This document shows, in pieces, positions 5,795 to 51,706 of a stretch of 64,000 bases of DNA. The DNA is from Candidatus Woesearchaeota archaeon B3_Woes (GTDB taxonomy: Archaea; Nanobdellota; Nanobdellia; Woesearchaeales; B3-WOES). Every line of letters begins with the position of its first letter. Within the stretch, counting starts at the first letter, position 1. Position numbers and translations under genes: made by a program. The stretch covers positions 146,323 through 210,322 of the forward strand of contig NJBG01000001.1 of NCBI GenBank assembly GCA_005222965.1, in the 5' to 3' direction. The notes below the pieces were generated by a model. The model was not told the origin of the DNA. It was given only the letters and a program-made list of their open reading frames with translations, and did no database searches.

Positions 5795-5821
5795 TAAAAA
5801 ATTAGGAGTAGTTTATAAATC

Positions 5822-6985
5822 TTATCTTATATGCAACTCCAAAACATCCTTATCTTCCAAATTTTTATCCATTTTATTGTATTTTTGACCGTCAAACTTA
5901 GCAGATTTCCCCCAAACACGTGCAAATCTAAAATTACTAACAAAATCCTTGTGCAATTTTTCGCAAATATCTCTAATACTACAGGATTTAAACATAATCA
6001 AGGGTTCTTCCATATCTGGTTTTTTCCCAACCTCTTTTAAAAAAATTCTTATCAAATCAAGTTTTTGATAAATAGCTTCTCTTAAATCCCCAATACCTTT
6101 ACCTGTTTCAGCAGAAACCACCACACAAGGTTTAATCTTTTCAGAAATTGATTTGAGAGTTAATTTATTGACCAAATCTATTTTTGTAATAACATTTAAT
6201 GATTTTGTATATATTTTATTATTCTCCAAAACATCAATAAACTGATCTAAAGTTATATCTTCCCTAAATAAAATGTCAACATTAATCATCTTAAACATTT
6301 TCATAATATCTTCAATTGTTTTCTTATTAATTTTAGTTAATTTAACTAAAGAACTCACACTAATTCCTCCTCTTTCTTTTTTTGTGATAACAACGTCTGG
6401 TTTTTTTTGATCTAATCTAATATCTGCATCATAAACTTCTTTTAACAATGATTTATATTGGTGAAGATTCTGTGCTTCAACTAAAATCATTACCAAATCC
6501 GCATTACGAAGCATTGTTAAAACCTCTTTTCCACGCCCCTTACCAGAAGCAGCTCCACCAACAACACCAGGAACATCAATAATTTGGATCTGAGCATATT
6601 TATATTTCATCAAACCAGGAACAGCAGAAAGTGTTGTAAAAGCATACGCTCCAATATCTGATTTAGCATTTGTTAGTTTATTCAATAGAGTTGATTTTCC
6701 AACAGAAGGGAATCCTAATAATACAACAGTTCCATCTCCTGTTTTTCTAACACTAAATCTATCATCCCCTCCTTTTCCCTTAGCAGAACGTTTTAAATTT
6801 TTGCCTTTTAACAAAGCTAATTTCCCTTTCAAAAGTCCTACAGCACGCTCTGTACTCTTATTAACTTTAGTTTTACTAATCTCTTTTTCAAGCTCTTGGA
6901 TCTGCTCTGGTAAATTGCTCTTTTTTCTTTCAACTACCTGAACTTCCTTTCTCTTTCCAACCTTAACCTTCTTCTTGCCTCCCAT
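5822..6985 (-). CDS. DRG/OBG-family GTPase with TGS domain
   Basis: GFPSVGKS, YAFTT, DVPG, TKID; C-terminal ARVWGKSAKFDGQ. Confidence 0.93.
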   Translation of the reverse strand: MGGKKKVKVGKRKEVQVVERKKSNLPEQIQELEKEISKTKVNKSTERAVGLLKGKLALLKGKNLKRSAKGKGGDDRFSVRKTGDGTVVLLGFPSVGKSTLLNKLTNAKSDIGAYAFTTLSAVPGLMKYKYAQIQIIDVPGVVGGAASGKGRGKEVLTMLRNADLVMILVEAQNLHQYKSLLKEVYDADIRLDQKKPDVVITKKERGGISVSSLVKLTKINKKTIEDIMKMFKMINVDILFREDITLDQFIDVLENNKIYTKSLNVITKIDLVNKLTLKSISEKIKPCVVVSAETGKGIGDLREAIYQKLDLIRIFLKEVGKKPDMEEPLIMFKSCSIRDICEKLHKDFVSNFRFARVWGKSAKFDGQKYNKMDKNLEDKDVLELHIR

Positions 6986-10448: not shown

Positions 10449-10747
10449 TTTTTATCCTCTTTACTATCTGATGGTTTTTCTTCTGATTTAATAACTTTTT
10501 CTTCTTCTTTAACTGTTCTCTTTTTTCCAATAGAATAAGCTCTTCCTGCAAATTTAACTTTACATGATTTGCAAAACCAGATTCCTGCTGCTTCTCTTCT
10601 GACATTTTTTTTGCTACAATAAGGACAGATGTGTCTTCCTCTATGTCCTGACTCTATCTCAGCAACCTTTTCTTTTAAACGTCTACCATACCTAGGACCA
10701 AATCTTTTAGTCGATGATTTTTTCCGTTTTTGTTTTTTTGCTGCCAT
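10445..10747 (-). CDS. rpl37ae: 50S ribosomal protein L37Ae (eL43)
   Basis: RFGPRYG, CPYC, GIWFCKSC. Confidence 0.96.
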   Translation of the reverse strand: MAAKKQKRKKSSTKRFGPRYGRRLKEKVAEIESGHRGRHICPYCSKKNVRREAAGIWFCKSCKVKFAGRAYSIGKKRTVKEEEKVIKSEEKPSDSKEDKK

Positions 10748-10773
10748 TTTTCTTGATATGGGTGCTCTTAAAA

Positions 10774-10933
10774 TGGGGCTACCCGGACTTTCACCAATGC
10801 GAAAGTAGTGATCCGATTTCGCGGTTGTTTTGAACCGGGATCATCTGGTTTTTTTGTGTATCACACCCAAACCAGAAAGGCTAACCAAGTTACCCCATAG
10901 CTTAATGTTATATAATTAAAATTATATAATCCC
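10774..10933 (-). tRNA. tRNA-Pro(TGG) with three introns (3/4: 10902-10930; 37/38: 10850-10865; 59/60: 10788-10828)
   Basis: Spliced form GGGGCTA TG GGGT AACTTGGTTA GCCT T TCTGG TT TGG GA CCAGA TGAT CCCGG TTCAAAT CCGGG TAGCCCC A folds as a complete cloverleaf; BHB-like junctions. Confidence 0.88.
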
Positions 10934-11038
10934 ATTCTAGAGGTAACTTTAAATTGTAGATAATCTTTGGTTTTTAAATCTATCGGTAATACATTGTTTT
11001 CCGACATATTTATATATTGTTCACATATACAAAAAGAT

Positions 11039-12139
11039 ATGACACTAACAGAAAAACAAAAACACGATTTGAAGAAATTTGTAAAAGAACTAGAACAACA
11101 TAGAGGTCGCCATACAGAACTGGTTAGTGTATATGTTCCTTCTGGTTATGATATAATCAAGATTATACAGCACCTTGAACAAGAAAGAGGTACTGCTTCT
11201 AATATAAAATCAGCAGCCACACGTAAAAACGTTATTACTGCTTTAGAAAAAATGATCCAGCATCTAAGATTGTTTAAAAAAACACCAGATAATGGTTTAG
11301 CAGTTTTTGCAGGAAATGTATCTGAAAGAGAAGGCCAGGAAGATTTTGAAGTATGGAGTGTAGAACCTCCAGAATTATTAAAAACAAGAATCTATAGATG
11401 TGATAAAGAATTTCAATTAGAATTACTAAGAGATATGATGGATGTAAAAGAAGTTTATGGCTTGGTAATACTTGATAGGAGAGATGCTAACATTGCTTAT
11501 CTAAAAGGAAAAACAATTGTTCCATTAAAATCAACACATTCAGAAGTTCCTGGAAAAACAAAAGCAGGAGGGCAATCTGCTGCTCGTTTTGAAAGATTAA
11601 GGGATGGCGCTGCTAAAGAACATTTCAAAAAAGTAGCAGAATATGTTAAAGAACAATTTTTAGATAATAAAAACCTAAAAGGAATTATAGTTGGAGGACC
11701 AGGACCAACAAAACACGACTGGGTTGATGGTGGTTATCTAACAGATCAGCTAAAACAAAAGATTATTGCAGTTAAAGATTTAGGTTATACAGGAGATTTT
11801 GGTTTACAGGAATTAGTTGACAAAAGCCAGGATGTTTTAGCAAACGAAGAACTTGTTTCTGAGAAAAAAATTATGCAAAGATTTTTGGATTTATTAGCAA
11901 AAAAACCAAACATAATTTCTTATGGTGAAAAAGAAGTTATGGAATTTCTAAAAACAGGTGTTGTTGAAATTATATTACTATCAGAAAAACTGGATGATAA
12001 AAAAATAGAAGAGTTTGAAGAAGAAGCAAACAAAGTTGGAACAGAGGTAAATATTATTTCAACAGAAACAAGAGAAGGGGTTCAATTAAAAGAGCTCGGT
12101 AAAGTAGCAGCTATTCTAAGATACGAACAACACCAGTAA
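11039..12139 (+). CDS. prf1: Peptide chain release factor aRF1
   Basis: NIKS, YRCD and GGQS motifs; start reset to ATG 11039. Confidence 0.96.
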   Translation: MTLTEKQKHDLKKFVKELEQHRGRHTELVSVYVPSGYDIIKIIQHLEQERGTASNIKSAATRKNVITALEKMIQHLRLFKKTPDNGLAVFAGNVSEREGQEDFEVWSVEPPELLKTRIYRCDKEFQLELLRDMMDVKEVYGLVILDRRDANIAYLKGKTIVPLKSTHSEVPGKTKAGGQSAARFERLRDGAAKEHFKKVAEYVKEQFLDNKNLKGIIVGGPGPTKHDWVDGGYLTDQLKQKIIAVKDLGYTGDFGLQELVDKSQDVLANEELVSEKKIMQRFLDLLAKKPNIISYGEKEVMEFLKTGVVEIILLSEKLDDKKIEEFEEEANKVGTEVNIISTETREGVQLKELGKVAAILRYEQHQ

Positions 12140-37832: not shown

Positions 37833-38105
37833 ATGGTTGAAAACAAGGCTATTTTCAATGTTTTTTTCAGAGAAAAACCAGCAATGATGTTGGTCAACTT
37901 GAAAAATGCCAAAGGATCAATCTATGCTTCATCTTTAGCCAAACAAATCGATTGCACATATTCTCATGTTGTTAAGATTCTTCAAGAAATGGAAAAAAAC
38001 GAGTTAATAAATTTTGATAAACAAGGAAGATTAAAGCTATTAACTCTAACAAAAAAAGGATCTGATGTTGCAGATCATATTGCTAACATTAAAAACGTTT
38101 TATAA
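37833..38105 (+). CDS. MarR-like winged-helix regulator
   Basis: YASSLAKQIDCTYSHVVKIL...GR.K.L.LT.KG. Confidence 0.85.
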   Translation: MVENKAIFNVFFREKPAMMLVNLKNAKGSIYASSLAKQIDCTYSHVVKILQEMEKNELINFDKQGRLKLLTLTKKGSDVADHIANIKNVL

Positions 38106-51410: not shown

Positions 51411-51506
51411 TAGAATGGCAAATGGTTACGCCCATTTGATATGCAATAAGCGACATTCAAAGCTAAAGCTTTGAAATCCCTTCAACTTGCCCCTGTAGTA
51501 TAATGG
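51401..51506 (+). repeat. 18-bp direct repeat of the tRNA-Arg 5' end flanking a hairpin insert
   Basis: GCCCCTGTAGTA(G/T)AATGG at 51401-51418 and 51489-51506. Confidence 0.8.
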
Positions 51507-51582
51507 ATAATATACGACCTTGCGGAGTAATATCAATCTGCACAAAAAGGTTGAGATCGGAGTTCAATTCTCCGCTGGGGCA
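51489..51582 (+). tRNA. tRNA-Arg(GCG) with 22-nt 37/38 intron (51526-51547)
   Basis: GCCCCTG TA GTAT AATGGATA ATAT A CGACC TT GCG G[intron]A GGTTG AGAT CGGAG TTCAATT CTCCG CTGGGGC A; A20 Arg identity element; one U-U mismatch in the acceptor stem. Confidence 0.88.
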
Positions 51583-51706
51583 TAAATTTATAAGTAAAGT
51601 TAGGAACATAATGTAAGATCAAAAATAAGAATTCTCGAGATATACAAAACTATTGTTTTTATCTATTATTAGTAGATTATCAATAATAAACTATTGATAA
51701 TCTTAT

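Follow-up and report, generated by a model that had tools for sequence, protein, structure and literature searches.

Transfer RNA (tRNA) genes of archaea may be interrupted by introns that lie within a bulge-helix-bulge (BHB) motif, written in full as hBHBh′ and defined here as two 3-nt bulges on opposite strands, a 4-bp helix (H) between them and the flanking helices h (outer) and h′ (inner). This domain is already known to have tRNA genes with several introns, BHB introns that lie outside the canonical position, introns close to the 5′ end and, in split tRNAs, BHBs formed with the aid of a leader (PMC4033280, PMC4090602, PMC8450103); this and the other statements on published systems refer to the accessible portions of the papers cited. 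The present work describes a proline tRNA gene, tRNA-Pro(UGG), of Candidatus Woesearchaeota archaeon B3_Woes (assembly GCA_005222965.1), which belongs to a Woesearchaeota-like order of the DPANN archaea (Diapherotrites, Parvarchaeota, Aenigmarchaeota, Nanoarchaeota and Nanohaloarchaeota). The gene lies in a stretch of 64,000 nt of contig NJBG01000001.1 (positions 146,323 to 210,322), hereafter the window, and very probably carries three introns, the first of which, between tRNA positions 3 and 4, is enclosed by a strict BHB formed with the help of the leader.

The closest described systems each share part of this organization. In Thermoproteales (Pyrobaculum, Thermofilum and Caldivirga) up to three BHB introns occur in one tRNA, also outside position 37/38, and such introns are found by removal of the BHB motif, tRNAscan-SE 2.0 adding 60 nt of flanking sequence for introns near the ends of the gene; the accessible parts of these papers mention no 3/4 intron with leader pairing (PMC4033280, PMC8450103, PMC3218864). 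Split tRNAs, as in Nanoarchaeum equitans and Caldivirga, have a leader or trailer external to the tRNA that contributes one side of the BHB and is removed by the splicing endonuclease EndA (PMC4033280, PMC4090602). In DPANN archaea, including one Woesearchaeota and one Pacearchaeota genome, Kaneta et al. (2018) reported alpha4-type EndAs together with more disrupted tRNAs and took incomplete tRNA sets as a sign of disrupted genes yet to be identified (PMC5829648). The pre-tRNA-Pro(GGG) of ARMAN-2, likewise a DPANN tRNA-Pro, has strict BHB introns at 53/54 and 59/60, the latter in a strict hBHBh′ (Fujishima et al., 2011, PMC3239211).

A proline tRNA gene in four exons

The gene and the parts of the leader that pair with it are arranged as follows (window positions, all on the minus strand).

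10949-10937, minus strand: leader positions -16 to -4, 5′ strand of the outer helix h of intron 1, pairing with tRNA positions 5-7 and 9-17a
10936-10933, minus strand: 5′ strand of H of intron 1 (leader AAT plus G1), pairing with CATT at 10907-10904
10933-10774, minus strand: tRNA-Pro(UGG) gene, four exons and three introns, all exons within 160 nt
10933-10931, minus strand: exon 1, G1-G3 (GGG); G2 and G3 with A1 of the intron form the 5′ bulge GG^A
10930-10902, minus strand: intron 1, 29 nt, position 3/4, A+T-rich and containing a hairpin
10901-10866, minus strand: exon 2, 36 nt, positions 4-37 (rest of the 5′ acceptor strand, D arm, anticodon UGG and G37)
10865-10850, minus strand: intron 2, 16 nt, canonical position 37/38, relaxed BHB
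10849-10829, minus strand: exon 3, positions 38-59
10828-10788, minus strand: intron 3, 41 nt, position 59/60
10787-10774, minus strand: exon 4, positions 60-73, ending with the discriminator A73; CCA is not encoded

All the elements named in an earlier sequence-only reading of this DNA (a GGG 29 nt upstream of the tRNA body and three introns, among them one of 16 nt at 37/38 and one of 41 nt at 59/60) are present. Concatenation of the four exon segments by their coordinates in a script gives a product of 74 nt, which ARAGORN folds into a perfect cloverleaf as tRNA-Pro(tgg), with UGG at positions 34-36, G37 and A73. Both G37 and A73 are features of tRNA-Pro. The G+C content of the joined product is 55%, compared with about 30% for the window and the genome, and its cloverleaf includes the 7-bp acceptor stem that removal of intron 1 had been expected to restore.

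Excision at the bulge sites yields a canonical tRNA that is colinear with uninterrupted orthologs: the joined product agrees with the ortholog of genome G393 at 69 of 74 positions, free of indels at every junction (score 128). In BLAST searches exon 2 is found with 36/36 identity at its own locus only within its own genome and with 86-97% identity in the orthologs. The exons follow one another on a single strand, and not, as in split or trans-spliced tRNAs, as pieces at separate loci with promoters of their own. The proposed proline tRNA gene with three introns is, in our view, very likely to be real.

The two downstream introns differ in the quality of their motifs. In intron 2 the BHB is relaxed, H consisting of three A-U pairs and a G35.A mismatch and h′ of 3 bp. 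In intron 3, h is the 5-bp T stem and H is a complete TTCA/TGAA helix (4/4), with AA^A and AG^T as bulges. Segments of intron 3 also have complements in the variable region and in the T arm's 5′ strand (GGATC/GATCC and AACCG/CGGTT, window 10842-10780, minus strand), and the intron would be able to sequester TGAAAG. By BLAST, none of the three introns has a second full-length copy in the genome, the matches being short and A+T-rich, so there is no sign of intron transposition within it.

The leader-built motif at position 3/4 and its conservation

Leader positions -3 to -1 and G1 read AATG and pair with CATT of intron 1, while the bulges are GG^A and AA^G, with AA at the intron's 3′ end. The motif is thereby a strict 3-4-3 BHB with H paired 4/4 and the splice sites after G3 and before G4. 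This agrees with the sequence-only reading as regards the leader-made H, both bulges and the TAG/CTA pairs outside them, but the outer helix is longer than that reading supposed: TAG/CTA forms the contiguous first 3 bp of a helix of 13 bp in which U8 is bulged, in both the minimum free energy (MFE) and the centroid structures of RNAfold. The strictness claimed there for the 3/4 motif likewise stands; the 37/38 motif, with its G35.A mismatch, is not strict. The inner helix h′ has 9 bp and a 4-nt loop. The fold constrained to the BHB has -19.1 kcal/mol and the MFE fold -21.2 kcal/mol, with the same helices in both, and the duplex between leader and exon reaches -14.7 kcal/mol, compared with -4.8 +/- 2.1 kcal/mol for shuffled leaders (0 of 1000 shuffles reach -14.7).

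Relatives of the same order were used to examine the distribution of the introns. Of 41 genomes of 0.6-2.1 Mb, sampled at about one per family, 24 contain tRNA-Pro loci matched by a 201-nt DNA query, the genome described here (G000) being one of them. By spliced alignment of the joined product 34 orthologs were analyzed, namely 21 loci from the one-per-family sample and 13 more from a search of 401 genomes; the latter were chosen for a BLAST match extending upstream of exon 2 and this second batch is therefore biased towards the 3/4 intron. Four loci were dropped, two as other tRNAs (L022 and L023) and two as duplicates (L047 and L048, of L007 and L019, respectively). As a predictor of the 3/4 intron the upstream extension proved unreliable, since G034, G393 and G223 match upstream and are intron-free there. 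The introns are distributed as follows.

3/4 intron: 16 of 34 orthologs; 5 of 21 in the unbiased batch
37/38 intron: 13 of 34 orthologs; H 4/4 in eight, H 3/4 with G35.A in five, the gene described here among them
T-loop (59/60) intron: 22 of 34 orthologs; H and T stem both perfect in 19; the rule used gives no perfect solution for the other three
D-loop intron: 2 of 34 orthologs

Intron content thus varies freely around a conserved tRNA body. Six orthologs have the same set of three introns (G000, G018, G010, G340, G256 and G262) and six of the 34 have none. ARAGORN identifies five uninterrupted orthologs (G393, G034, G037, G030 and G009) as tRNA-Pro(tgg), an assignment that it also makes for 10/10 ortholog loci submitted to it, and the two uninterrupted genes scored with Rfam (G393 and G034) obtain 57 bits each.

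Every one of the 16 intron-bearing genes has exactly one upstream GGG with a 4/4 solution for H, whereas the 18 orthologs that start with contiguous GGGG give no spurious combination of an upstream GGG and a 4-bp helix. The 5′ bulge is GG^A throughout (16/16), the 3′ bulge is AA^G in 13, AT^G in two and TA^G in one, and h′ ranges from 2 to 10 bp. The sequence of H varies among these genes: AATG/CATT occurs nine times, CACG/CGTG twice, and GATG/CATT, GATG/CATC, TGCG/CGCA, TGTG/CACA and AGCG/CGTT once each; with TACG/CGTA in a further genome, G026, the variants number eight.

Covariation was evaluated on a MAFFT alignment of 15 orthologs (G069 was excluded because its 49-nt intron was misplaced by MAFFT), with the following results.

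H: 100% of cells paired (60/60); 3 of 4 pairs changed on both sides
h′: 96.4% of cells paired; 5 of 6 pairs changed on both sides
Leader helix h: 78.8% of cells paired; 2 of 13 pairs changed on both sides

Over the whole structure 86.9% of cells are paired, and displacing the partners by 1-3 columns lowers this to 35-44%; both members change in 10 of 23 pairs, and none of 500 shuffles reaches the observed covariation score. The helices are thus kept by compensatory change in relatives, as is also seen in intron 3, in which H covaries with position 57 (TTCA/TGAA in 14 orthologs and TTCG/CGAA in five).

A covariance model built from the same 15-ortholog alignment (R1) gave 12 strong full-length matches of 41.7-85.8 bits in 151 genomes of the order (11 without the unpublished G132), three of which lie outside the training set (G026, G069 and G132). 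The seven weaker matches (22-26 bits, 40-67 nt) include G001, a genome that lacks the 3/4 intron. In G026, recovered by a model that had not been trained on it, inspection by eye reveals a strict BHB, with the H variant given above, and a leader complementary to the D-arm region. Altogether the 3/4 intron has been verified in 17 genomes of at least 14 families. The sequence-only reading held that triple-intron tRNAs and 3/4 introns are rare and reportedly occur mainly in Thermoproteales, a view that needs widening now that the same 3/4 intron is found conserved across a DPANN order whose splicing enzyme had been taken to be narrow in specificity.

At a finer scale, contigs of strains about 90% identical, from marine and sediment metagenomes, carry the gene in colinear form. 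The differences listed are four substitutions in intron 3, two indels in intron 1 and three changes in the leader (-5 A>G, -7 C>A and -8 U>C), which keep or add pairs with U6, U8 and G9; the absence of any exon change among them lends slight support to a maintained gene. The arms of intron 1 (ATTATATAA ... TTATATAACATTAA) are near-identical across families f1, f2, f18, f51, f116 and f119 (L034-L041), a conservation beyond structural need, though the same-family genome G001 (L005) lacks the intron.

The region upstream of the gene differs with the presence of the 3/4 intron. A TATA-like box begins at -45 to -66 from G1 in all 16 intron-bearing orthologs; among the intron-less ones a match was obtained in 15, and in 10 of these it begins at -33 to -40. 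In the intron-bearing genes the box lies about 12 nt further upstream. The archaeal TATA box is usually centered about 26 nt before the start of transcription. With the usual spacing, the box at -45 to -38 of the present gene would place the start at about -15, just where the complementary part of the leader begins; a similar argument from promoter distance was made for long leaders by Chan et al. (PMC3218864). The leader-exon duplex averages -14.1 kcal/mol for intron-bearing genes (n=16) and -7.0 kcal/mol for the remainder (n=18), a difference whose Mann-Whitney p of 2.8e-6 overstates the case because the relatives are not independent. To judge from these comparisons, leader complementarity and the upstream shift of the TATA-like box appear specific to genes with the 3/4 intron, which fits selection for a leader that is present at the time of splicing.

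The features that flank the gene are the following.

10978-10971, minus strand: TATA-like box TTTAAAAA, at -45 to -38 from G1; a consensus match only, with a putative promoter role
10773-10770, minus strand: TTTT run just after A73; possible transcription stop, possibly part of the TATA-like TTTTAAGA, to judge from its sequence
10747-10445, minus strand: ribosomal protein L37Ae gene (Pfam PF01780, 74.8 bits), 26 nt after the tRNA

Located about 24 nt ahead of the ATG of L37Ae, TTTTAAGA may serve both as a stop for the tRNA and as the TATA box of a leaderless mRNA; alternatively, tRNA-Pro and L37Ae may be co-transcribed. In G026, too, the gene after the tRNA is L37Ae; in G340 and G256 the tRNA is succeeded by an ATGGC start. 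Besides L37Ae, the gene for RNA polymerase subunit P lies downstream, and aRF1 is encoded on the opposite strand.

Splicing enzymes, order of processing and alternative readings

The genome (1.02 Mb in 4 contigs, 96% complete) encodes the enzymes expected for BHB introns, a splicing endonuclease and the RtcB ligase. EndA is a single gene of 194 aa outside the window (C1:502309-502893; PF01974, 98.9 bits; PF02778, 63.2 bits), and no paralog is detected in the genome by tblastn; a weak EndA-like match at C1:593379-593597 (E=0.08), considered as a candidate beta subunit, was rejected, as it lies in an open reading frame (ORF) of 425 aa that looks glycosyltransferase-like by eye. RtcB (530 bits) is likewise encoded outside the window, and the archaeal RNase P RNA is present in the genome (125 bits). 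Among solved structures EndA is closest to the catalytic subunit of N. equitans (E=4.9e-36), followed by the alpha4 enzyme of Methanocaldococcus jannaschii (E=7.6e-33), to which (1a79) residues 24-194 align with two single-residue gaps only. It lacks the 9-residue insertion of the Aeropyrum pernix alpha subunit, taken as the crenarchaea-specific loop (CSL), as well as the 6 extra residues that precede the catalytic His in N. equitans. With an N-terminal and a catalytic domain, a length in the ~180-aa class and no beta or alpha′ partner, the gene is predicted to encode an alpha4-type EndA. Homologs about 70% identical to it carry the source name 'Candidatus Woesearchaeota archaeon'. A Lys-rich N-terminal tail of 20-30 residues occurs in all seven Woesearchaeota-type homologs viewed, and the M. 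jannaschii match begins at query residue 24.

The sequence-only reading had suggested a look at EndA architecture and had expected a broad-specificity endonuclease, an expectation that these data do not support: EndA is a single alpha-type gene that lacks a paralog, CSL- or Nanoarchaeum-type insertions and any gap larger than one residue relative to the alpha4 enzyme of M. jannaschii. Enzymes of the alpha4 and alpha′2 types need a strict 3-4-3 motif (PMC3239211), and the 3/4 intron makes no demand for broad specificity, its motif being strict in 17/17 genomes, as expected for a narrow enzyme. Some widening of tolerance, perhaps by way of the Lys-rich tail, would still be compatible with the relaxed BHB in intron 2 and with the offset h′ in intron 3.

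Processing may be envisaged as follows. Transcription would begin from the TATA-like box about 45 nt upstream of G1, with a start about 15-20 nt upstream of it, and would give a precursor in which four exons and three BHB introns are preceded by some 15-20 nt of leader. The leader would pair with positions 5-17 (13 bp), and -3 to -1 plus G1 with the CATT near the 3′ end of intron 1, to create the 3-4-3 motif; the single alpha-type EndA would then cut all three BHBs and RtcB, to judge from its presence, would join the exons. Joining of G1-G3 to G4-A7 would create the 7-bp acceptor stem with its five G-C pairs and displace the leader, which is predicted to be free after joining, with the acceptor stem formed. 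RNase P would then cut at -1/+1, and CCA would be added afterwards.

The order of these steps follows from the architecture, since a cut at -1/+1 removes H pairs of the leader-built motif (three of the four) together with the whole outer helix, and splicing would accordingly have to come before 5′-end processing. The claim to this effect in the sequence-only reading holds as a deduction, drawn from structural logic and not from an observation of the steps. That same reliance on logic, and the small energy differences between conformers of introns 1 and 3, speak for a looser scheme in which the helix between leader and exon serves to delay cloverleaf folding, or RNase P and EndA compete and precursors cut by RNase P first are dead ends. 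This scheme has to contend with the loss of three-quarters of H and all of h at a -1/+1 cut, as well as with leader complementarity and a promoter shift that go specifically with the 3/4 intron, and we consider it quite improbable.

Some observations weigh against a working gene that is processed as proposed by a plain EndA and is the only one of its kind. The BHB fold of intron 2, at -2.1 kcal/mol, is 10.7 kcal/mol worse than the MFE of -12.8 kcal/mol, which has a symmetric internal loop instead. In intron 3, h′ is offset by one bulged G and not stacked directly on H, and the MFE is a non-BHB fold (-16.5 kcal/mol, compared with -16.0 kcal/mol for the BHB fold), an alternative of about equal energy that results from the complementarity of the intron to the T-arm region. 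A typical alpha4 EndA is described as restricted in its cleavage to strict BHBs located at the canonical position (PMC3239211). No 3/4 intron is present in G001 (78% complete), the single genome sampled from the same family. No RNA run was found over window 10500-11200, and splicing, transcription start and order of steps are here deduced; the sole run at the locus labeled as possible RNA is probably DNA and covers 10676-10828 only, and four sequencing runs gave only DNA-type contigs of related strains with no informative joint, the two joints listed having short sides of 22-23 letters, in one run. Finally, ARAGORN calls no tRNA for 6 of the 20 amino acids (Ala, Asn, Asp, Met, Pro and Trp), and with the genome 96% complete and tRNA calls missing, another, more disrupted tRNA-Pro could be hidden.

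The structural points bear on a reading in which the gene and its introns are real and the EndA of this lineage has been broadened by an undescribed element, either the Lys-rich tail or a partner unrelated to EndA, on which the non-canonical introns depend. The tail, present in 7/7 homologs and missing from the M. jannaschii chain in the alignment, would be a candidate for such an element. Introns 2 (G.A in H) and 3 (h′ offset) are not strict, 3 of 22 orthologs with a T-loop intron have no perfect solution under the rule used, and alpha4-type EndAs of DPANN have been tied to increased disruption of tRNA genes (PMC5829648). This explanation is nevertheless unlikely in our judgment: the 3/4 motif is a strict 3-4-3 with a perfect H in all 17 genomes, a constraint that a narrow enzyme would impose, and the protein has no insertion of more than one residue relative to the alpha4 prototype. 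The missing tRNA calls in turn raise the question of a copy in decay or without function, with proline decoded by another tRNA-Pro in the unassembled 4% or in split or permuted form. An assembly that is 96% complete and in four contigs, many evidently hidden tRNAs and BHB-removal scans that are noisy and incomplete would leave some space for it. Set against this are exons that form a flawless cloverleaf, 17 genomes that keep the architecture with compensatory changes, listed strain differences that affect introns and leader but no exon, and BLAST searches with the joined product and the 201-nt query that show no second Pro locus. Decay of the copy is thus a very remote prospect, and we retain the reading of an active tRNA-Pro(UGG) gene with three introns.

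The suspicion that standard scanners would miscall the gene proved correct. In its genomic form it receives no call from ARAGORN with introns allowed and no match to Rfam RF00005, either at the gathering score or at E<=10, as expected because the gene is broken at three places; orthologs with only the 3/4 intron give Rfam matches truncated to model positions 4-67 or 6-65. The sequence-only reading had also advised a search for a second tRNA-Pro(TGG) gene: none was found in the genome by ARAGORN, Rfam or two scans based on BHB removal, the 201-nt query matches the genome once only, and BLAST of the joined product against the genome reveals no second Pro-like piece beyond generic T-arm matches. 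The locus is probably the sole tRNA-Pro gene of the genome. The first scan covered 17,124 BHB candidates and 60,641 spliced contexts and the second, relaxed and limited to non-ORF DNA, 135,961 contexts; both, though noisy and incomplete, recover the locus and flag other disrupted tRNA loci.

Among these are G+C-rich intergenic loci that are likely multi-intron tRNAs, with conflicting anticodons in the scans, at C1:212804-212960 (-), 213056-213220 (+), 661916-662076 (-) and 929658-929950 (+); further loci of this kind lie at C1:84111-84281 (-), 730669-730833 (-), 37859-37970 (+) and 277816-277947 (+). The first, C1:212804-212960 (-), is tRNA-Met(CAT)-like with two or three introns. The intron option of ARAGORN gives conflicting anticodons, and the tRNA-Pro gene itself becomes Leu(taa) when the program places intron 2. 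Within the window, ARAGORN reports a tRNA with the four-base anticodon 'tgcg' at 51488-51583 (+) (Rfam, 48 bits), which by eye is a tRNA-Arg(GCG) with a 22-nt intron at 37/38, its acceptor stem perhaps containing a T6.T67 mismatch. When GC islands were used to look for hidden tRNAs genome-wide, the result (801 islands) was too noisy to be of use. On the 6.3-kb contig C3, four intron-less, high-scoring tRNAs (Lys-CTT, Glu-TTC, Val-CAC and Thr-CGT) lie within 350 nt (5815-6162, +), a cluster unlike the scattered, intron-rich tRNAs on the main contig; C3 may have a foreign origin, viral or other, or be a binning error.

Comparison with described systems

As for annotation, the only detectable proline tRNA of this genome is invisible to ARAGORN and Rfam, and orthologs with the 3/4 intron alone are given a wrong 5′ end. 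These misses make tRNA inventories, and statements on 'missing' tRNAs, unreliable for these DPANN genomes. Hidden disrupted tRNAs were suspected by Kaneta et al. (PMC5829648), and the locus provides a concrete case that extends over an order, together with a model, R1, that finds more. With regard to mechanism, it offers natural tests of whether a loop-less, single-subunit EndA works off the canonical position if the BHB is strict and of whether splicing can be forced ahead of 5′ maturation; with regard to evolution, the compensatory changes between leader and intron and the displaced promoter show sequence external to the tRNA co-evolving with an intron.

In the literature that could be searched, with most subscription papers outside its reach, no account was found of a tRNA-Pro intron at 3/4 in Woesearchaeota or any other DPANN lineage. 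What is new here is the lineage, the pairing of such introns with a plain single-subunit EndA, the conservation over the order with covariation of leader and intron, and the displaced promoter. A wider reading, in which an old 3/4 intron that depends on the leader persists throughout the DPANN order, possibly in its sole tRNA-Pro gene, and is processed by a plain EndA that lacks the known specificity loops, is offered as a tentative one that we hold to be rather unlikely in its entirety. Were it true, alpha4-type enzymes would act in vivo on strict BHBs at any position, and the presumed tie of intron position to enzyme architecture would in fact be a tie to the strictness of the motif; the strict motif, or the Lys-rich tail as a new RNA-binding element, would enable processing. 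The intron would also hard-wire the sequence of splicing first and RNase P next, with the promoter moved upstream to supply the leader.

Compared with the Thermoproteales, the lineage is a Woesearchaeota-like DPANN order and not Crenarchaeota, the enzyme is a single alpha-type EndA devoid of CSL and not an (alpha-beta)2 enzyme with CSL, and the 3/4 motif is strict and not relaxed. Kaneta et al. credit the breadth of DPANN enzymes to an 'L3' loop, which was not located in the present EndA, a protein with no insertion of more than one residue, and the accessible part of their paper describes no specific 3/4 tRNA-Pro intron (PMC5829648). The ARMAN-2 enzyme is a three-unit epsilon2 EndA with a specific loop, and the available account of its pre-tRNA-Pro includes neither a 3/4 intron nor a role for the leader (PMC3239211). 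In comparison with split tRNAs, the present arrangement acts in cis on one transcript, and its leader stays on G1-G3 instead of being removed by EndA, so that RNase P is still needed. If the wider reading holds, the gene would represent the cis equivalent of trans-splicing guided by leaders in Nanoarchaeum, and perhaps a transitional stage towards split tRNA genes.

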